Shown: piece after piece, positions 272-52,392 of the stretch
Numbering within the stretch: position 1 is the first letter of the stretch
Layout of the letters: the number at the start of each line of letters is the position of its first letter
NCBI GenBank assembly: GCA_963766735.1
Contig: CAVYBU010000006.1
Coordinates: forward strand, 141,272-205,271
Length of the DNA: 64,000 bases
Source: an uncultured Chloroflexia bacterium
Lineage (GTDB): Bacteria > Chloroflexota > Limnocylindria > Limnocylindrales > CSP1-4
Direction: 5' to 3'
The notes under the pieces: model-generated
What the model saw: the letters and a program-made list of their open reading frames with translations, nothing else
The model's database searches: none
Told to the model about the DNA's origin: nothing
Translations under genes and position numbers: made by a program

Positions 272-457
272 GGGATCTCCGGATGGGGCTCCGGGGCCAT
301 GGTCACGCGAGCACAGAACCTGAGTAAATCTGGGTATGGTTGGCCGACCGGACCGGGCGAGTGTAGGAGCGGTCGGACCGGGCGTCAAACGAGGCCAACT
401 GGAGCCGGGGTCGGGTCGACGACCGGCCGGCGCCCGTCAGGCGGGCACGGGCGAACG

Positions 458-811
458 TCAGGCGGGCACGAACTCGTGATCGTCCCGGTGGAGCCCATCA
501 CACAGCCCCCAGGCGGGCGGTTCGCCCGGCAACGGGACGGGGCGCATGATCTCGCGTACCTCGCCGCGACGGCAGAACAGGTGACCGCGCTCGGCCATCC
601 AGCGGCGAACGCACGCTGGGTCCGAGTGGAACTGGTGCGGGCCTGGGTTGAGCGGCGTGGACTCCGCCCAGCCAACCGCCACCTCGGGAGCGACGATGTC
701 CAGGAGGCTCACGCGCCACGGCGTCCCCGGGATGGTCTCCCGGCAGCCGTCACACCGGATCGCGAGGTTGTCGTTGACGATCGTACGGATCGTCACACCC
801 ATGATCTCCAT
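458..811 (-). CDS. hypothetical protein, possibly Zn-binding
   Basis: GGAGG RBS; CDGC plus further Cys/His (FHSDPAC, CDGLH). Confidence 0.65.
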   Translation of the reverse strand: MEIMGVTIRTIVNDNLAIRCDGCRETIPGTPWRVSLLDIVAPEVAVGWAESTPLNPGPHQFHSDPACVRRWMAERGHLFCRRGEVREIMRPVPLPGEPPAWGLCDGLHRDDHEFVPA

Positions 812-44658: not shown

Positions 44659-44976
44659 TCCCAGATAAGTCGCGGGTGAGCGGCGCGCGGCACCATGCCG
44701 CGCATGCCTGCGACGACCCATGGCTCCGACCGCCACGGAGCCAGATCCAACCACCCAGGGCCAACCGCCCGGGTTCCCGGGCACCCGCCGCTGGGCGGCC
44801 GGGTTGACGCTGCCGATCCCGCATCCCTATCGTTCGCGCCATCAGACGGCGCCGCTACCGGCAGCAGTTCCCGGCCGAACCCGTCGACGTCAGGGCACGA
44901 GGGACATGCGCTGGTCGCGGTCGGGCCTGGGATCGCAGGTTCAATGCTGTTCGCGGGACCGATCGGGCGGCTGGGG

Positions 44977-47900
44977 ATGAACCCGCTGCCGATCCAGCCG
45001 GCGAAGATCCACCCGCCGCTGCTCCGCCACGATGTCCTCTCCCGAGAGCGCCTCAACGGCTGGCTGGACAACGCGGCGAACGGGCGCGTCGCGCTGGTCA
45101 TCGCCGAGGCCGGGTTCGGCAAGACCACGTTCCTTGCGGACTGGGCGCGCCACACCCGACGCGCAACGGCGTGGTACCGCCTGGAACCGGATGACCGGGA
45201 CTGGCTCGCCTTCATCAGGCATCTGGTCGCAAGCGGCCGGGAGATCGACCCCGGGTTCGCTCCGGATACCTACGACCTGCTGGCCGCACTGGGGCCAGGT
45301 GGTCCGTCCAGGGATGACCTGATCGTCAGCGTCGCCCAGGAGATGGCCGAACTCGCATCGTCGCTGCCCAACGGCCTGAGCCTCCTGTTCGACGACTACC
45401 ACTCCGTCGACGGCAGCCCCGAGACCGAGCCCGTCATGAAGGCCCTGGTCGATCGAACGGGACCCGAATTCTCCCTGGTCATCGCGTCCCGGGCGGCGCC
45501 ATCGCTCGCCCTGGGCAGGCTGCGCGCCCGCGGCGCCCTCTCGCGGATCGACGGCGACGGCCTCTGTTTCGACGTCCCCGAGACGGAGCGCCTCTTCCGG
45601 GATGCCTACCACCAGCCCCTGGACGCGGACGTGGTGGTGGACCTGATCGCCCGGACGGAAGGCTGGGCCGCGCTCCTGTCGCTGGTCCACACGAGCCTTG
45701 AGGGCCGAGCGGCCGTCGAGGCTCGCGGGCTCGTCCGGCACCTGTCGGGCGCTCGCGGCGACATTCGTGACTATCTCGCCGAGGAGGTTCTCGACCACCT
45801 TGCTGATCATCTTGCTGACTTCTTGGTGCGCGCTTCGATCCTCGATGTTGTCGGGCCCGAGTCTGCGGCGCTACTTGGGATCGGCTCCAGAGATGAGTGC
45901 GTGGCAATGATCCGAGACGCCGCTGGCCTTGGTCTTTTGGTCGAGATCACGACGGGTGATGGCCACAGGTTCGTTCCGCTCGTTCGCGAGTACTTGTCCG
46001 CCCGTCTGAGCCGAGAAGAGGGGTGGGCCGCGATCCGCGATGCCCACATGATGCTGGGTGCGCACTACGTCGACTCTGACTGGAGGCTCGCCGCTCATCA
46101 CTATCGCGCTGCGGGGCAGCCGAGTTTGGCAGTCCAAGTCATCCAGAACTCCCTGAGCACCATCCTCGGCAGCGGACAGTACCGAGCTGCAGCTGACCTA
46201 CTCGCCGGTTCCGACGAACTCGTCGTAGGCGAGGTCCTTCGCTCACGACTCTTGCTACAAGTCGGCGCGGTCGCCGAAGCCCGATCCGCGTCGAGTTCCG
46301 CAGTCGCTGCCGCAGCATCGCACCGCCCAGCCGACCAATCGCTCGCTCTGCAGAACGCCGCAACGATCTCTCTGGTGTCTCGTCAGTACGAGGAAGGTCT
46401 CAAATACGCCGAAGAGGCGGAGGCGGCAGCCACCGACAGGTGGGAAGGGGAGCTCGCCCGGGCTCATGTCGCTCTGCTTGGCGCATCGGGAACTGGGAGC
46501 CTTCCGGCCCTGGTGCACCAACTTGAGCGCCTTCTGGGCGTCCAGCGCAAGCGGGCCTACTGGCATCACGCCGCCATCACAAGCCTCAACCTTGCTCAGG
46601 TCCTGGTTTGGCTGGACCGAGACACGGAAGCGCTGCGACATGCAGCCGACGCTGAAGAATTCCTGACCCGGTCATCCCAAGGCTATGAGTTGGTTTCCGT
46701 CAAGCTGGCGCAGGCTCACGCCGAGGCGCACCTCGGTCACTGGTGCGCAGCGCAGGCACTACTCGAGACCTCAGTTCAGACAGGCCACCCCGAGGGACAG
46801 GCTGAAGCGGTTCTAGACGCGGCAGGACTTGCTGCGTGGTTCGGGCCGAACGATCTCCCAGCGCGAATCCTGGCTCAGGTTCGGCGCGAGTCCCTCCCGT
46901 CCAGCTGGAAGGCACATTGGCGTATCGTCGATTTGTGGCTTGAGGAAGAGTCGCAGCGGCGGTCAGAGATCCTCGATGAGTTGCGGGCCGATCCGCCCCC
47001 CTCACTGGAGGTGGGGGCGGCATTTCGATGGCACTACACGAAGGCCAGGGCCTACCACGCTCAAGGGGATGCCAAAGGGTTCGACGACGAGATCGCGCGG
47101 GTTGACCAAGTCTGCCAACTCCAACGCTCACCGGTCGAGGAGCGGCTTCAGGCGTTGCTCCGTGGGGTCGCATCAGGACCACAGCATCTGTCGAGGGTGA
47201 TTGAGTCTTGGAGTCCGGCCTCCGCCCCTCTGATTGGGGTACTCGCGTACGAGGTCGCGGGCCTCCTAGGCTCCCTATCCGATGACGCCGCCGCTGCGGT
47301 TGGTCGTGCCGTGGCAGGTGCCCCATACAGATGGCGACGACCTCTGAGGGTCATGCTCGAGAAGGCCGGCCCGGCGCGACACCTGGACCGTATTGCACAA
47401 CTGCTTGAGGAGATCGGCGAATCGGCCGATGTTCAACTGCTTCGCGAGTACGGTCGTAGGTCGAAACGCGCGCGCGGAAACTGGGGCGAGGACTTGGGGC
47501 GACGACTCGCCCCGAGGGCGTTCATCGAGGATCTAGGCCCGATCTCGATCATCATTGGTGATCGCGTGATCGACGGGCGAGGAATCCGCCGCAGAGTCCT
47601 CGGCCTTCTTGCCTTTCTGATTAGCCAGCCCAACGGATCAGCAACGCCCGACCGCGTCATGGATGCACTGTGGCCTGAGTTGGACCCCGGGCAAGGGAGC
47701 AACTCGATCCACCAGACCATCTACTTCCTTCGGCGCGTGATCGACCCAGACTACCGGGCAGGCGTCTCTCCCGAGTACGTGCACTTCGATAGTGAGGTGA
47801 TCTGGCTCGATCGGGATCTCGTGCAGTGCAGGAGTTGGCGCTGTCAGGCTCTCCTAGGCAAGCGCGCCCTCTCGCCATCAGAGGTCGACGAACTCGTCCG

Positions 47901-48222
47901 GGACTACTGCGGGCGGTTCGCGGCCGAGTTCCCGTACGAGGACTGGGCGTCGGACTATCGGGACCATCTACATGCGCGCTACCTGGGCGAGATCGAGAAG
48001 GTCCTCTCAGAGCCTCGTCATAGTCCAGACCTGCGATGGAGATTATGGGTCGGCCAGCGGGCGCTTTCGGTCGATCCTGAAGCCGATGCGGTCGAGGCTC
48101 ACGTGATCCGGTTGTATCGCCGACTTGGGGCGTCTGCCGCCGCGGCAGAGCAGTACGGGCACTACTCGACCGTCATGAGAGACCAGCTCGGCGTCGAGCC
48201 CCCTGGGATCGAGGACCTCTGA
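44977..48222 (+). CDS. large transcriptional regulator: MalT-like ATPase, helical/TPR-like region, C-terminal winged-HTH + BTAD
   Basis: KIHPP, AEAGFGKTT (Walker A), FDDYH, TEGWAA, DYLAEEV; C-terminal LGP...LLAFL...DALWPE...IYFLRR...Y.G.F....PYEDW; start uncertain. Confidence 0.85.
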   Translation: MNPLPIQPAKIHPPLLRHDVLSRERLNGWLDNAANGRVALVIAEAGFGKTTFLADWARHTRRATAWYRLEPDDRDWLAFIRHLVASGREIDPGFAPDTYDLLAALGPGGPSRDDLIVSVAQEMAELASSLPNGLSLLFDDYHSVDGSPETEPVMKALVDRTGPEFSLVIASRAAPSLALGRLRARGALSRIDGDGLCFDVPETERLFRDAYHQPLDADVVVDLIARTEGWAALLSLVHTSLEGRAAVEARGLVRHLSGARGDIRDYLAEEVLDHLADHLADFLVRASILDVVGPESAALLGIGSRDECVAMIRDAAGLGLLVEITTGDGHRFVPLVREYLSARLSREEGWAAIRDAHMMLGAHYVDSDWRLAAHHYRAAGQPSLAVQVIQNSLSTILGSGQYRAAADLLAGSDELVVGEVLRSRLLLQVGAVAEARSASSSAVAAAASHRPADQSLALQNAATISLVSRQYEEGLKYAEEAEAAATDRWEGELARAHVALLGASGTGSLPALVHQLERLLGVQRKRAYWHHAAITSLNLAQVLVWLDRDTEALRHAADAEEFLTRSSQGYELVSVKLAQAHAEAHLGHWCAAQALLETSVQTGHPEGQAEAVLDAAGLAAWFGPNDLPARILAQVRRESLPSSWKAHWRIVDLWLEEESQRRSEILDELRADPPPSLEVGAAFRWHYTKARAYHAQGDAKGFDDEIARVDQVCQLQRSPVEERLQALLRGVASGPQHLSRVIESWSPASAPLIGVLAYEVAGLLGSLSDDAAAAVGRAVAGAPYRWRRPLRVMLEKAGPARHLDRIAQLLEEIGESADVQLLREYGRRSKRARGNWGEDLGRRLAPRAFIEDLGPISIIIGDRVIDGRGIRRRVLGLLAFLISQPNGSATPDRVMDALWPELDPGQGSNSIHQTIYFLRRVIDPDYRAGVSPEYVHFDSEVIWLDRDLVQCRSWRCQALLGKRALSPSEVDELVRDYCGRFAAEFPYEDWASDYRDHLHARYLGEIEKVLSEPRHSPDLRWRLWVGQRALSVDPEADAVEAHVIRLYRRLGASAAAAEQYGHYSTVMRDQLGVEPPGIEDL

Positions 48223-48316
48223 TCCAGCTGGTCGCGCCCGGCGACGAATGGGCGAGCGAGCGTGTCGGTATTGGCTTCCGAGTGGGCGGCCCGGTGGGCA
48301 TAGGTAGGGTTGCGTA

Positions 48317-48346
48317 TTGACCGGTGTAGTCCGCCGTGCATATAGT
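48317..48346 (+). promoter_or_regulatory. sigma70-type promoter of the riboswitch/peptide operon
   Basis: TTGACC-N18-TATAGT. Confidence 0.75.
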
Positions 48347-48388
48347 CCGGCCCTGCACCAGTACTTTCGTACGGTGCACCAAGGAAAC

Positions 48389-48464
48389 GCTTGGACGCGC
48401 TGATGCCACCACCTGAAATGGGCACTTAGGGTGGAGGCGGAGCGAGTAGTGCAACCGACCGGCT
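48389..48464 (+). ncRNA. c-di-GMP-II riboswitch aptamer
   Basis: GGA-CGC-GC-TGATG-[CCAC..CCT]-GAAAT-GGGCACTT-[AGG GTGG]..GGA-GCG-AGTAGTGCAACCGACC: conserved class II blocks, CGC/GCG stem, GCACT/AGTGC pseudoknot. Confidence 0.88.
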
Positions 48465-48489
48465 TTCGAGTCAGGTCGGTTTTCGTGTT
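48453..48489 (+). terminator. intrinsic terminator overlapping the aptamer 3' end (expression platform)
   Basis: AACCGACC-GGCT-TTCG-AGTC-A-GGTCGGTT followed by TTCGTGTT. Confidence 0.8.
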
Positions 48490-48524
48490 CCCGGCGGACA
48501 CGGAGGCCGCAAGGAGGTACGAGC

Positions 48525-48557
48525 GTGGCACCGAGCAAGGGCCTCAAGGGCTGGTAG
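48525..48557 (+). CDS. 10-aa micropeptide MAPSKGLKGW
   Basis: AAGGAGG at 48511-48517, 7 nt before GTG; ends LKGW like the LKGF end of the next ORF. Confidence 0.55.
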   Translation: MAPSKGLKGW

Positions 48558-48583
48558 GACCAGGATCGCGGGAGGATCGACCG

Positions 48584-48673
48584 ATGAAGGATCGCCTCAT
48601 GCGACTCCTGGCCACTCTCGGCGCAGTCGCCGCATTGGCGCTCGCCGGAGGCGCGTCGCTAAAGGGCTTCTAG
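48584..48673 (+). CDS. 29-aa signal-peptide-like precursor MKDRLMRLLATLGAVAALALAGGASLKGF
   Basis: GGAGG RBS 8 nt before ATG; basic n-region, hydrophobic h-region, short polar tail. Confidence 0.8.
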   Translation: MKDRLMRLLATLGAVAALALAGGASLKGF

Positions 48674-48758
48674 AAGCAGGCAAGGGCCTCAGTACACAAG
48701 TCCTCTTCACTTGTGGGTCGAAGGGGCTAGAGTCCCACCGTTCGGGAACTGAGGACGA

Positions 48759-50123
48759 ATGCCGACAAAGCTGAAGCTCTACATTATTGGAGTCGTAGCG
48801 ACGAGCGCTATCGCGCTCGCTGCTACGACTCGTTTGATTCCAGTCGAGGACGGGGTTGCCCTGACTGTGGGGCCGTTCGGATCTCTCTCGACTCAGGCAG
48901 GCCTCGCATTCTGGTGTGCGGTGACCCTGATCGCGTCCGCGCTTCCCGTCCGAATGCCTCGCGGAACCATGGTGGGCGTTTCGATCGCGCCGCTGATTGC
49001 GGCCACGGTCCTGGGCGGTCCGACTGCCGGAGCCTGGGTCGCGCTCATCGGGACGACGGAGGTGCGTGAGCTGCGCGGCCGTGTTCCGTGGTACGGCTCG
49101 CTGGCCAACCACGCCGGGCTGATGATCCCCGCGATGGTGGCCGGCATGGTCATGCGAGTACTCGGCGTCCCGGGGAGCGAGGAGTACGCGATCACCTTCA
49201 TCGCGGCTCTGATCGGTGCGGCCGCCTTCTTCCTGGTCAACGCGACGCTCACCGCTGCCGCGGTGGCCCTCCAAACTGAGCAGCCATTTCGCAGCGTGTT
49301 GCTGGGCGACGCCAAGGTCTTCGCCACGAACCTAATTGGGCTTGCCCCGCTCGCTTGGCTCATGGCCCAGATGTACGAGGTAGCTTGGTGGGCGAGCTTG
49401 CTGTTCGCCGTTCCGCTCTACACGACGCGGCTCGCGTACCACAACATCATCGAGATGCGCGAGATGTTCACTCAGACCATCACCGCGCTGGCTGGGGCCG
49501 TGGACAAGCGCGATCCGTACACCAGCAAGCACTCGTGGCGGGTCAAGGAGATCGCAGGCGATATCGGACGGGTCATGCGCCTGGGCGAGAGTGACCTCGA
49601 GGCCCTCGAATGGGGCGGCCTGCTGCACGACGTGGGCAAGATCGGCGTGCGGGACGCGGTGCTGCTCAAGCAGGAGAAGCTCAACAAGGAGGAACGGGCG
49701 CAGATGAACGCGCACCCGGTCCTCGGTGCGGAGATCATCGCGCCGGTGACGCGGCTGTCCCGGGAGCTGCCGATCATCCGCCACCACCACGAGTGGTACA
49801 ACGGCTCGGGGTACCCGGACCGGCTGATCGGGGACGAGATCCCGCTGCTGGCACGCATCCTTCACGTCGCGGACGCCTTCGAGGCGATGACCGCCGCCCG
49901 GCCATACCGGATGACGCCGCTGACCTCGGAGCAGGCACTGGGCGAGCTGCGCAAGTTCGCCGGCGTCCAGTTCGATCCCAAGGTGGTGGACGCCTTCGTG
50001 AAGACAGACTGGGCCCAGGATGTGGCCGACCCGGGCCGGACGGCGCAGGCGCGACCGATCCCGCTGATCTCGCAGCACGCGAACCGGACGGCCAACGCCG
50101 TTGCCACTCCCGACGCAACCTGA
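48759..50123 (+). CDS. HD-GYP phosphodiesterase with N-terminal multi-TM sensor domain
   Basis: About 6-7 TM, then DPYTSKHSWRV, LLHDVGKIG, HHEWYNGSGYP, VADAFEAMT..RPYR, QFDP. Confidence 0.93.
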   Translation: MPTKLKLYIIGVVATSAIALAATTRLIPVEDGVALTVGPFGSLSTQAGLAFWCAVTLIASALPVRMPRGTMVGVSIAPLIAATVLGGPTAGAWVALIGTTEVRELRGRVPWYGSLANHAGLMIPAMVAGMVMRVLGVPGSEEYAITFIAALIGAAAFFLVNATLTAAAVALQTEQPFRSVLLGDAKVFATNLIGLAPLAWLMAQMYEVAWWASLLFAVPLYTTRLAYHNIIEMREMFTQTITALAGAVDKRDPYTSKHSWRVKEIAGDIGRVMRLGESDLEALEWGGLLHDVGKIGVRDAVLLKQEKLNKEERAQMNAHPVLGAEIIAPVTRLSRELPIIRHHHEWYNGSGYPDRLIGDEIPLLARILHVADAFEAMTAARPYRMTPLTSEQALGELRKFAGVQFDPKVVDAFVKTDWAQDVADPGRTAQARPIPLISQHANRTANAVATPDAT

Positions 50124-50232: not shown

Positions 50233-52392
50233 ATGCTGATCGGCGGTATCGCGCTCGGGCTGGTGCTCGGTCTGCTCCTGGGCGGGCGCCTGGAGAACCT
50301 GGCCGGCATCCGGCTGCGCTTCCTGCCGCTGCTGTTCGCGGCGGTGATCCTGCGGTTTGCGACGGAGGCGCTGCTCGGGATGGGCGTCGAGGTCGTGGAC
50401 CTGCTGCGCGTGCCGCTGCTCGGAGGCGCGTACGGGCTCCTGCTCTTCACCCTCTGGCACAACCGCTCGTACCCGGGCCTGGCGCTGGCCTTCATCGGGA
50501 TCGCGTCCAACACCCTGGTGATCGTGTGGAACGGGGGCTGGATGCCGGTGTGGCAGCCCGCCTACGACGCGTCCGGGCTGGCGGGACCGCTCTACTCGCA
50601 GCTCCACTTCCCGATCAGTGGCACCGGCGCCGAGTTCCTGGTCCACCTGGGCCCGCTGGCGGACGTCGTCCCGTTCCCCATCCCACCGCTGCAGAACGTC
50701 GCCTCGGTCGGTGACCTGTTCCTGACGGCCGGCCTGGCCATCTTCCTGTTCGCCACCCTGATGAGAACGCCGGCCGACACGCAGACGGCGATCGACGAGG
50801 CAAAGACGGGTCGCTACCTGGGCCTGTCGGGCACGGCCCGCCTGCCGAGGCGTGGCGAGGCGGCGGGGGACGCGACGAGCCTGGGCGTCCGCCCGGGAAC
50901 AGGCCTGACGCCCGGCCTGCAGGAGGCCGCGGCCCTCGAACGCCCGCTGATCATGGGCGCCAGCGGCATGGGCATGTCATCGCCGTCCCAGACGTCGCTC
51001 GCGTCGGAGGGAGCCACCGCCGGAACCGGAGTCGCGGCCGCCACCGCCACCGCCTTCCCCGGCGGCATTGCGATCCCCCGCCCGCGTCCTCGCCGGCGCG
51101 CGCTCGCCCCGCGCGTCCGCCGCCACCCGTACGTGCGCCTGGCGCTCAACGGCTCGTTCTCGGCGCTATGGGTGGGCCAGGTGATCAGCCTGTTCGGGGA
51201 TCGCGTCAACCAGATCGCCCTGGGCGCCTTCGTCTACGAGCTGACCGACTCCCCGTTCGCCGTGGCGCTGACCTTCTTCATGGGGACGATCCCCAACCTG
51301 GTCTTCTCGCCGATCGCCGGGGCCTACGTGGACCGCTGGGACAAGAAGCAGGTGCTGGTGGTCTCGGACATCCTCCGGGCGGCGCTGACCCTGCTCGTGC
51401 CGGTGGCCGTCCTGATCAACGTCTGGCTGGCGTACCCGCTGGTCTTCCTGATCACGACGGTCTCGATCTTCTTCCGACCGGCGCGGGTTGCGATCCTGCC
51501 GCGCCTGGTCCCCAAGCGGGACCTGCTCTCCGCCAACTCCGCGATGTGGGTGGGAGAGACGCTGGCCGACGTCATCAACTACCCGATCGCCGGCCTGTTC
51601 GTGGTCTTCCTGGCTGGATCGCTGCCGATCGCGTTCTGGTTCGATGCCGCCACCTACCTGGTCTCGGCCGCCCTGCTGGCCTCGATCGCGATGCCGCCGC
51701 TGGCCCGGCGAATCCGCGGCACGGACGCCGCCGATGGTCCGGAGGGAGCGAACGAGGGCGAGGGCGGGACAGACTCCCAGACCTCGATCCTCACCGACAT
51801 GAAGGTGGGATGGGCATTCCTCCGCCACGAGACCGTCCTGCTGGCGAACACGATCCAGGGGACGGCCGGCCAGTTCGCGGTCGGCATCGTCACGGTGTCC
51901 GCCATCATCCTGGCGAGGCAGATCACGGGTTCGGATGGCAACGAGTACCGCGCGACCTACGCGTTCATGGAGACGGCCATCGGCCTCGGCAACCTGATGG
52001 GCGGCTTCGCCCTGGGCATGGTGGCCACGCGCGTCCGCAAGGGGCGGCTGGTGATCGCCGCCTACACGGTCTTCGGCGTCCTGATCTTCCTGGTCGGCCT
52101 GACCGATTCGATCCCGCTGATCCTGGGGCTGCTGTTCGGGGTCGGCGTGGCGAACATGGCGTTCGTCATCCCCAGCCAGACGATGTTCCAGGAGCGCACG
52201 CCGCCGGAGCTGATGGGGCGCGTGGTCAGCCTCCGGTTTGCCCTCGTGTTCGGCGGTATGTCCGTGGCCATGGCCGTGGGCGGCCTCCTGGTGGGGATCT
52301 TCGGGCCGAGCCCGGTGATCGCGGCGGCCGGACTGCTGTCGATCGTCGCCGGTCTCGCGGGGCTCGGCGTCAAGGCGCTGCGGGAGGCGTGA
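50233..52392 (+). CDS. DUF5317-like membrane domain fused to an MFS transporter
   Basis: N-terminal GGRLENL, SN..VI..NGGWMPV, LAD, SVGD; C-terminal LWVGQVISLFGD, GAYVDRWDKK, QERTPPELMGRV. Confidence 0.85.
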   Translation: MLIGGIALGLVLGLLLGGRLENLAGIRLRFLPLLFAAVILRFATEALLGMGVEVVDLLRVPLLGGAYGLLLFTLWHNRSYPGLALAFIGIASNTLVIVWNGGWMPVWQPAYDASGLAGPLYSQLHFPISGTGAEFLVHLGPLADVVPFPIPPLQNVASVGDLFLTAGLAIFLFATLMRTPADTQTAIDEAKTGRYLGLSGTARLPRRGEAAGDATSLGVRPGTGLTPGLQEAAALERPLIMGASGMGMSSPSQTSLASEGATAGTGVAAATATAFPGGIAIPRPRPRRRALAPRVRRHPYVRLALNGSFSALWVGQVISLFGDRVNQIALGAFVYELTDSPFAVALTFFMGTIPNLVFSPIAGAYVDRWDKKQVLVVSDILRAALTLLVPVAVLINVWLAYPLVFLITTVSIFFRPARVAILPRLVPKRDLLSANSAMWVGETLADVINYPIAGLFVVFLAGSLPIAFWFDAATYLVSAALLASIAMPPLARRIRGTDAADGPEGANEGEGGTDSQTSILTDMKVGWAFLRHETVLLANTIQGTAGQFAVGIVTVSAIILARQITGSDGNEYRATYAFMETAIGLGNLMGGFALGMVATRVRKGRLVIAAYTVFGVLIFLVGLTDSIPLILGLLFGVGVANMAFVIPSQTMFQERTPPELMGRVVSLRFALVFGGMSVAMAVGGLLVGIFGPSPVIAAAGLLSIVAGLAGLGVKALREA

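Follow-up and report, generated by a model that had tools for sequence, protein, structure and literature searches.

We describe a ten-codon open reading frame (ORF1; peptide MAPSKGLKGW) located behind a cyclic di-GMP (c-di-GMP) riboswitch in the genome of an uncultured bacterium of the Limnocylindria, phylum Chloroflexota. The stretch of DNA analysed, referred to below as the window, comprises 64,000 nucleotides (contig CAVYBU010000006.1 of GenBank assembly GCA_963766735.1, positions 141,272–205,271), and positions are numbered from its first letter. Comparison of orthologous leaders indicates that ORF1 is a genuine conserved coding unit under selection at the peptide level. The motif at its C-terminal end recurs in the 29-residue product of the next frame (ORF2), and both frames are followed by genes for a c-di-GMP phosphodiesterase (MASE9-HD-GYP) and a membrane transporter (DUF5317-MFS_3). 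We assign a probability of roughly 45% to the reading in which ORF1 would be a trans-acting micropeptide, with a C-terminal tail that mimics the tail of ORF2, and would act on the MASE9-HD-GYP/MFS unit.

Conservation of ORF1 and its transcript

The GTG start of ORF1 (48525–48527) is followed by the codons GCA CCG AGC AAG GGC CTC AAG GGC TGG TAG and is separated by a spacer of 7 nt from its Shine–Dalgarno sequence (SD1). The closest in-frame stop on the 5' side is a TAG at 48447 and no start codon lies between this TAG and the GTG. ORF1 is the first ORF preceded by a Shine–Dalgarno (SD) sequence after the riboswitch and the terminator-like hairpin. Direct reading of the sequence thus confirmed what a preliminary description of this DNA had reported, namely an ideal AAGGAGG ribosome-binding site, a GTG start and ten codons encoding MAPSKGLKGW, in the first ORF after a riboswitch; the switch is a c-di-GMP-II aptamer. 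The absence of an export signal, which had also been remarked upon, was found in the relatives as well, where the peptide has 6–11 residues and no hydrophobic segment.

SD-preceded ORFs of 6–45 residues ending in K-[GPSA]-[WFY] were searched for in the whole 3.6 Mb genome. Five matches were obtained, all of them at this locus or at a second, colinear copy of it on contig C10 of the same metagenome-assembled genome: ORF1 and ORF2 of each copy and, on C10, an extended version of ORF1 in the same frame whose start lies within the riboswitch. The confinement of the tail motif to the two locus copies argues that the pattern exceeds chance.

The relatives belong to Limnocylindria and are all metagenome-assembled genomes. 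Among 92 distinct leaders, ORF1 had 8–11 codons in 82, was expanded in frame in three and was frame-broken in seven; the spacer between the SD sequence and the start was 7 nt in 73 of the 92 (range 5–9 nt). Relatives of another member contributed 25 more distinct leaders, which brought the total to 117; of these, 103 contained an intact ORF1, defined as an SD-preceded frame of 6–11 codons or an in-frame expansion (at most 45 residues) ending in K-x-W/F/Y; the Lys at position −3 is therefore part of the definition in the set of 103. The preliminary description had proposed conservation of the ribosome-binding site, frame and tail in orthologous loci as a check, and its view that ORF1 is a genuine frame that standard annotation would miss is supported by these numbers.

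Codon figures free of this selection were taken from the 72 ten-codon ORF1s. Codon 8 specified Lys in all 72 (AAG 69, AAA 3), the Pro codon CC-N varied at its third base (G 38, C 24, A 7, T 3), Gly was encoded by GGC or GGT and the last codon was TGG in 64, TTC or TTT in seven and TAC in one. In the 103 intact leaders the start was GTG in 85 and ATG in 18, the final residue was Trp in 91, Phe in 11 and Tyr in one, and the stop was TAG in 91, TAA in 11 and TGA in one; lengths were 6–11 codons, with additional expansions of 24, 28 and 37 codons. The replacement of Trp by Phe or Tyr takes two base changes, and length changes within the intact set were by whole codons only. Start interchange, synonymous wobble, aromatic swaps and whole-codon length changes together form the signature of a translated ORF, in which the SD sequence, start, frame and stop are kept and synonymous variation is admitted.

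A chance or decaying ORF in a conserved RNA leader, with the conservation arising from constraint on RNA or DNA, is strongly disfavoured as an explanation and is judged very improbable. It would accord with the near fixation of the TAG stop and with the nucleotides AAGGGCTGGTAG, which are highly conserved and are kept out of frame in frame-broken loci. The interchange of GTG and ATG, the wobble and the two-base aromatic replacements argue against it, as do the variation of the stop among TAG, TAA and TGA, the restriction to whole-codon length changes and the repeat expansions in units of 21 and 27 nt (see below). No conserved helix over or after ORF1 was found by RNAalifold on 90 leaders.

The 501 nt leader was present in 43 of 60 congeneric genomes and in 78 of the 80 loci encoding an orthologue of the HD-GYP protein; the other two loci were cut by contig ends. 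A profile of ORF2 matched in 14/23 cases in family f1 and in 11/16 in a second family of the class, f3, with only five weak matches elsewhere in 401 Chloroflexota genomes. The layout in f3 was the same, with a nine-codon ORF1 of the form M-x-R-x-x-hydrophobic-K-G/S-W and an ORF2 ending in GGAS[LF][KR]GW; both were recognized in eight of ten f3 loci, and the pattern gave no ORF2 tail in the other two. Six-codon ORF1s (MVIKAW and MTLKPW) occurred among diverged loci that the ORF2 profile had missed. Natural loss of ORF1 was also looked for, and the genomes missed by the ORF2 profile held diverged ORFs or contig breaks and provided no informative knock-out.

The aptamer scored 59.5 bits against a gathering score of 53.5 for RF01786 and is assigned to the c-di-GMP-II class. 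The 5' arm of the terminator hairpin overlaps the 3' strand of the closing helix P1 of the aptamer, so that ligand binding should prevent termination; the element is thus probably an ON switch that operates through transcription termination. The promoter-like site 5' of the aptamer coincides with a block, ATAGGTAGGGTT.CGTATTGACC, that is nearly invariant in the alignments. A hairpin between the terminator and SD1 showed compensatory pairs among the leaders (for example, 48483–48503 was UG in 38, UA in 36 and CG in 14); it overlaps the 3' arm of the terminator.

Contigs assembled from RNA libraries (four runs of four studies) covered 48365–48681, that is, the riboswitch, ORF1 and ORF2. One contig of 289 nt (48393–48681, one mismatch) bridged the terminator, ORF1 and ORF2, which places ORF1 on one transcript with the riboswitch and ORF2. 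DNA carry-over into such libraries is possible, and the contigs are silent on translation. The contigs of two studies ended at 48680 and 48681, just past the ORF2 stop, which is at most a weak hint at a short peptide mRNA. In three of the four runs the contigs ended near 48654–48681 and left the HD-GYP gene uncovered, and gaps between contigs do not constitute evidence.

ORF2 and the shared C-terminal tail

The translation of ORF2, MKDRLMRLLATLGAVAALALAGGASLKGF, has a basic N-terminus followed by a hydrophobic stretch and ends in AGGASLKGF. The frame was conserved with strict three-base periodicity and encoded 29 residues in 37 of 44 loci; A21, G22, G23 and S25 were invariant in 35 sequences. 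No Pfam or NCBIfam family matched the peptide.

The end of ORF1, GLKGW, had been said to echo the end of ORF2, SLKGF. This proved correct, and the same motif class, [hydrophobic/polar]-K/R-G-aromatic-stop, was common to both peptides throughout the class. In the window the echo is visible as a DNA repeat (48543–48564 against 48659–48680, 17 of 22 nt). In one clade (L084, L086, L116 and L113), and also in L111 and L121, the last five residues of the two peptides were identical or nearly so: SIKGW in both at L084, SIKGW and SVKGW at L086, SLKGW in both at L116, SAKGF in both at L113 and TLKGF in both at L111 and L121. Where the DNA was compared (L084, L086, L116, L113 and L111; L121 was compared as peptide only), the codons of the matching tails differed, with Ser encoded by AGC against TCC, Gly by GGC against GGT or GGG and Leu by CTT against CTC. 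Since the residues are the same and the codons are not, recent gene conversion does not explain the identity of these tails. A shuffle test on 68 unique tail pairs, which ignores the relatedness of the loci, gave P = 0.024 at position −4 and P = 0.005 for positions −5 and −4 jointly. These comparisons establish the echo at the level of a motif class, with one clade in which it is especially marked, and they suggest that the two tails may have co-evolved.

An exact 12 nt direct repeat, GCAAGGGCCTCA, was also observed at 48535–48546 (inside ORF1) and 48680–48691 (just past the ORF2 stop). It is present in both locus copies of the genome, and its positions vary among the relatives.

In three related loci (L073, L082 and L081), ORF1 was expanded into in-frame repeats of three or four units, each ending in TKGF or TKGW. 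One form reads MEISSVTKGF-SSVTKGF-SSVTKGF. A second consists of MESTSVTKGW followed by three copies of TVLAVTKGW, with a period of 27 nt and 98% matches. The form at L082, MEILAITKGW-SLLSITKGW-GIRSITKGW, has units that have diverged except for ITKGW, with synonymous differences among them. The stop of ORF1 lies 2–43 nt before the start of ORF2 in the different loci. Fusion of the two frames by read-through or frameshifting was considered and is ruled out by their relative frame, which is 0, 1 or 2 depending on the locus.

The main rival to a trans-acting peptide is a role of ORF1 in cis as a leader or arrest peptide. In this scheme, the K-G-W end in front of a stop codon of the release factor 1 (RF1) type would slow termination or position the ribosome on the SD-like sequence of ORF2 (SD2) and would thereby control ORF2 translation or protect the transcript, with no separate function for the peptide once it is released. 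Stop-codon usage is compatible with such a scheme, TGA ending only one of the 103 intact ORF1s compared with 72% of the long ORFs of the genome (TAG 26%, TAA 2%) and 27 of 108 ORF2s. This scarcity fits either a tight stop that leaves a free C-terminal aromatic residue or an RF1-dependent effect in cis, and the latter is retained as the main rival for this reason. ORF1 is moreover the first frame of the leader, with its stop close to the ORF2 start, and conservation falls on the three residues that precede this stop; in another family (f27; see below) a terminator-like hairpin lies 3' of the corresponding micro-ORF of locus L218. Arrest of a short ORF at its own stop has a precedent in PepNL, which is reported to have 14 codons and a UGA stop that is read through by Trp-tRNA (PMC11890864). 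Several observations stand against a cis role. In-frame expansions that keep internal TKGW units would be purposeless for arrest at a stop codon, and six-codon forms barely reach the exit tunnel. Tails identical to those of ORF2 and written in different codons point to a shared partner, whereas the ribosome does not diverge among lineages. Neither the spacing nor the relative frame of ORF1 and ORF2 is conserved, and RNAalifold on the 90 leaders showed no conserved terminator or antiterminator 3' of ORF1. Action in cis is accordingly considered unlikely, if still a serious contender. The preliminary description had named a leader peptide and an antagonist among its readings, and either may apply.

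Candidate partners of the peptides

The phosphodiesterase gene matched the Pfam families HD_5 (1e-37), HD (3e-22) and MASE9 (6.4e-5, just under the cut-off) and was followed by the DUF5317-MFS gene in 79 of 80 loci. In partial Mantel tests (34 loci), the similarity of ORF1 tracked that of the HD-GYP N-terminus (partial r = 0.45, P = 0.0005).

A MASE9 profile retrieved homologues in 16 genomes of other Chloroflexota families. An SD-preceded hydrophobic ORF of 24–35 residues lay directly 5' of the homologue in ten of 15 loci outside f1 and f3 (f4 included), with tails such as GGANWSL, GAGQKWF and AAANTKWL; none of five paralogous loci within the class carried an upstream hydrophobic small ORF. 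A riboswitch match was found in only one of the 11 loci scanned. In family f27, the gene that was checked (L232:299–2848, minus strand) encodes a single MASE9-HD_5-MFS_3 polypeptide of 850 residues, and the other six f27 loci had open frames of 849–875 residues; over the f27 and f18 homologues (loci L236–L257), open frames of about 850–890 residues were present in 21 of 23 matches. Such a fusion is an argument for cooperation between the HD-GYP and MFS genes, which are separate in the window.

All seven f27 loci had an SD-preceded micro-ORF of eight or nine codons, ending in W, F or L, before the homologous gene (MLTLNWQF, MLSLNWSL, MTFSLSFSW, MLTWNWTW, MLSWNYSW, MLSWSFQW and MILNLTVNW; stops TAG in five, TAA in two). 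At L213 and L237, the micro-ORF tail NWSL is also the tail of the 24-residue peptide that follows. In f18, a 29-residue ORF occurred in seven of 13 loci, an internal Met giving a 24-residue form MKKL...GGAN (one had a longer read of 45 residues); an eighth was seen separately. On sequence grounds, the constant neighbour of the micropeptide genes appears to be the MASE9-HD-GYP enzyme together with the MFS transporter, and the riboswitch does not appear to be constant. We would also call the STAND regulator encoded 5' of the leader not constant, with the limit that loci outside the class were not examined for regulator genes.

A side observation concerns locus L223 (reverse complement, approximately 375–660), where an ORF 5' of the MASE9 homologue ends in about 13 tandem pentapeptides of the form N-[IV]-T-W-D.

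A mechanism that would accommodate these data can be outlined. ORF1 would be the first cistron of a short mRNA under the control of the c-di-GMP-II riboswitch, and the same mRNA would encode ORF2, a 29-residue membrane or signal-like peptide. Selection would act mainly on the hydrophobic-K-G-W/F end of ORF1. The free ORF1 peptide would represent a soluble copy of the exposed tail of ORF2, and the two tails would share a single partner, for which the best candidate is the adjacent membrane unit formed by the MASE9 sensor of the phosphodiesterase and the MFS_3 transporter. At high c-di-GMP, the first products would then be two small peptides that tune the c-di-GMP-degrading enzyme, or that are transported and sensed by it. 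In the preprint that defined MASE9, its ligand is argued to be probably bound within the membrane (bioRxiv 10.1101/2021.11.05.467447). Prediction of a complex between the MASE9 domain (residues 1–240, 35-row alignment) and ORF2 gave a score of 0.06 against a mark of 0.32, which carries no weight either way.

A number of points weigh against this trans-acting reading. It is hard to see how a peptide of ten residues, two of them lysines, would reach the outer face of the membrane, and the correlation between ORF1 and the HD-GYP protein is also expected from linkage and common descent. Co-variation of the tails is not established once relatedness is considered: tests on independent pairs had one to five usable pairs, too few to reach significance, and many loci match at just 0–2 of the five tail positions. 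The NWSL tails of L213 and L237 are identical in DNA as well as in residues, so that gene conversion is possible there. A cis-acting effect on termination would also account for the strong preference for TAG and TAA and for the motif always sitting immediately 5' of the stop codon. Finally, an intact ORF1 is missing from seven of the 92 or 14 of the 117 leaders. The 14 mostly retain AAGGGCTGGTAG out of frame and, because several also carry a broken ORF2, they are interpreted as assembly indels.

A related possibility, which we regard as rather improbable, is that the cassette forms an autocrine or cell-to-cell signalling layer. High c-di-GMP would open the riboswitch and the two peptides would be made; the leaderless ORF1 peptide would be exported by MFS_3, which is fused to the phosphodiesterase in other Chloroflexota. 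It would then compete with, or add to, the identical membrane-tethered tail of ORF2 at MASE9 and so set the activity of HD-GYP. The tails of the different lineages, among them KGW, KGF and NWSL, would then differ in specificity, much like pherotypes.

The remaining candidate partner is the protein encoded upstream. In this protein, a MalT-like STAND NTPase module is followed by a long helical region and, at the C-terminal end, by a winged helix of the SARP type plus BTAD. Pfam placed AAA_16 at residues 118–256 and BTAD at 1068–1169; the structure of MalT (PDB entry 8bob) matched residues 102–486 (E = 2.9e-27), and the NCBIfam MalT match (E = 1.5e-48) was below the cut-off. The preliminary description had suggested that ORF1 may be a ligand of the helical region of this regulator. 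As a cytoplasmic ligand, ORF1 would link c-di-GMP to transcription at the conserved block before the HD-GYP gene. The regulator C-terminus does lie directly 5' of the leader in 72 of 80 loci, or in 72 of the 73 with upstream sequence (seven of the other eight are cut by contig ends), and MalT-type STAND regulators are known to be switched by small ligands bound to a sensor domain. The separate, conserved promoter-like block before the HD-GYP gene and, as a weak hint, the RNA contig ends at 48680 and 48681 could be accommodated as well. The suggestion is nevertheless not supported by comparison of the two locus copies. Their flanks are 95–99% and their leaders 98% identical, and ORF1 and ORF2 are the same in both, yet the regulators, which agree at 100% over residues 92–291, share only 40 of 100 residues in the window 392–491 and 18–50% in later windows to residue 1175. 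Partial Mantel tests against the last 280 regulator residues, given HD-GYP similarity, were likewise null for ORF1 (r = 0.03, P = 0.39) and for ORF2 (r = 0.08, P = 0.25). In other families, too, MASE9-HD-GYP homologues come with micro-ORFs or peptide genes, although the presence of the regulator was not examined there. We consider a ligand role towards the regulator to be improbable.

The replacement of the C-terminal two thirds of the regulator between the two copies is sharply bounded (window 45700–48286 against C10:2000–4559). The regulator ORF also failed the coding filter (GC3 > 0.80) that was passed by all neighbouring genes, and a composition unlike that of its surroundings fits allele exchange; the variant looks like an exchangeable allele cassette or strain heterogeneity.

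Layout of the locus and comparison with known systems

The features of the locus are listed in Table 1. The gene order is regulator, riboswitch, ORF1, ORF2, MASE9-HD-GYP and DUF5317-MFS_3. The intergenic block 5' of the HD-GYP gene may be a second promoter with a regulator site; this reading was made by eye, and the promoter consensus scan did not call the block.

Table 1. Features of the micropeptide locus. Positions refer to the window.
Feature	Position	Strand	Basis
STAND/SARP regulator gene (1175 residues from the first listed ATG)	44695–48222	+	Pfam, PDB and NCBIfam matches
Promoter-like site TTGACC-18-TATAGT	48317–48346	+	10/12 consensus matches in promoter scan
c-di-GMP-II riboswitch aptamer	48384–48467	+	RF01786, model positions 1–84 of 84
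Terminator-like hairpin plus T-run	48457–48490	+	Hairpin scan; minimum-free-energy fold
Conserved hairpin between terminator T-run and SD1	48478–48508	+	RNAalifold, 90 leaders
ORF1 Shine–Dalgarno AAGGAGG (SD1)	48511–48517	+	GGAGG nearly invariant in leaders
ORF1, GTG start, 10 codons MAPSKGLKGW, TAG stop	48525–48557	+	Sequence and comparative analysis
ORF2 Shine–Dalgarno-like GGGAGGA (SD2)	48570–48576	+	Sequence; GGAGGA kept in congeneric alignment
ORF2, ATG 48584, TAG stop, 29 residues	48584–48673	+	Three-base periodicity, conserved length
Conserved intergenic block CCTCAGTAC.CAAGTCC ... TTCAC-16 nt-TAGAGT, 5' of HD-GYP gene	48687–48735	+	Alignment conservation
MASE9-HD-GYP c-di-GMP phosphodiesterase gene (454 residues)	48759–50123	+	Pfam; HHHEWYNGSGYP motif
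DUF5317-MFS_3 membrane transporter gene (719 residues)	50233–52392	+	Pfam DUF5317, MFS_1, MFS_3

Aptamers of a variant class are also present in this genome. At least ten matches to the c-di-GMP-II-GAG variant aptamer (RF03169) were recorded, with scores of 55–77 bits against a gathering score of 40. They include loci L003–L008 (C2:353897, C8:11144, C7:2913/5530/8174 and C3:312819), with further copies inside, and three lie in series on C7. Five of these aptamers were read on the sense strand (L003–L007) and precede genes whose products start in a signal-peptide-like manner; that of L008 was read on the opposite strand only. We know of no ligand assigned to the RF03169 class.

Peptide pheromones of Gram-positive bacteria (SHP/Rgg, PapR/PlcR, Phr/Rap and AimP/AimR) are encoded by very short genes beside a large helical-repeat regulator, and their active part is the C-terminal five to eight residues. 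The present locus resembles them in having a very short gene beside a large helical regulator and in the variation of the tail between lineages, here within one clade. It differs in that ORF1, with 6–11 residues and no hydrophobic segment, carries no export signal of the kind found in RRNPP systems (ORF2 does carry a basic N-terminus and a hydrophobic stretch), in its riboswitch control and in the lack of an Opp-type importer in the cassette. In place of an HTH-TPR receptor of the RRNPP type, the neighbouring gene encodes a MalT-like STAND regulator whose DNA-binding domain is of the SARP type.

Small membrane proteins are also known that modulate a membrane sensor, as MgrB and SafA do with PhoQ. 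The likeness lies in a tiny membrane peptide that is encoded with, and presumed to act on, a polytopic sensor, which fits ORF2 more than ORF1. The peptides are not homologous to these modulators, and the sensor at the present locus is MASE9-HD-GYP.

Two further types of short gene were considered and rejected. An attenuator of the trpL type was dismissed because ORF1 has only one Trp codon, with Phe or Tyr in its place in 12 of 103 leaders, because no conserved helix lies over or after ORF1 and because the downstream genes are ORF2, HD-GYP and MFS. In streptide, a ribosomally synthesized and post-translationally modified peptide (RiPP), Lys and Trp are cross-linked. A RiPP precursor of this type was rejected on the grounds that no radical-SAM or other maturase was found by Pfam in the cassette and 12 neighbouring genes (37.3–57.6 kb).

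The arrest peptides PepNL, TnaC and SpeFL are upstream micro-ORFs of about 10–25 codons with conserved last residues before the stop, as in ORF1, and the identity of the stop codon matters for function (PMC11890864). ORF1 differs from them in its lack of sequence likeness, in its six-codon and expanded forms and in the tail that it has in common with ORF2.

The nearest published case found is that of Clostridioides difficile, in which small membrane proteins of 58 residues (the CD1980.2 family) are encoded behind c-di-GMP riboswitches (PMC13724677). The two systems are alike in that unannotated small ORFs with their own ribosome-binding site directly follow a c-di-GMP riboswitch that acts by premature termination, small proteins are a main output of the switch and the products are of a membrane type (there, and for ORF2 here). 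The C. difficile switches are of class I and turn expression off at high c-di-GMP, the proteins are encoded by several unlinked paralogues and have a part in sporulation, and the article reports no CD1980.2 homologues outside C. difficile. The window differs from this in its class II aptamer, which is predicted to be an ON switch, in its ORFs of ten and 29 residues with matching tails and in being constantly linked to genes for an HD-GYP phosphodiesterase and an MFS transporter. Switch class, direction, size, linkage and organism thus all differ, and ORF1 and ORF2 are not placed in the CD1980.2 family; they are set apart from it by description and not by sequence. No description of a module composed of riboswitch, micropeptide and HD-GYP was found in the literature searched, subscription-only papers and supplements being outside the search.

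Genes of ten codons are invisible to annotation, and the comparisons made here point to a gene of 6–11 codons whose peptide is conserved throughout a class of uncultured bacteria that are abundant in soil and sediment. It may be a pointer to an undescribed peptide layer on second-messenger signalling. No ligand is known to us for membrane-embedded c-di-GMP enzymes such as MASE9-HD-GYP. Should the peptides prove to be inputs to the enzyme or partners of it, they would provide a testable candidate ligand for a sensor domain without a known signal, and riboswitches could, if this is true, have micropeptides as their primary output.

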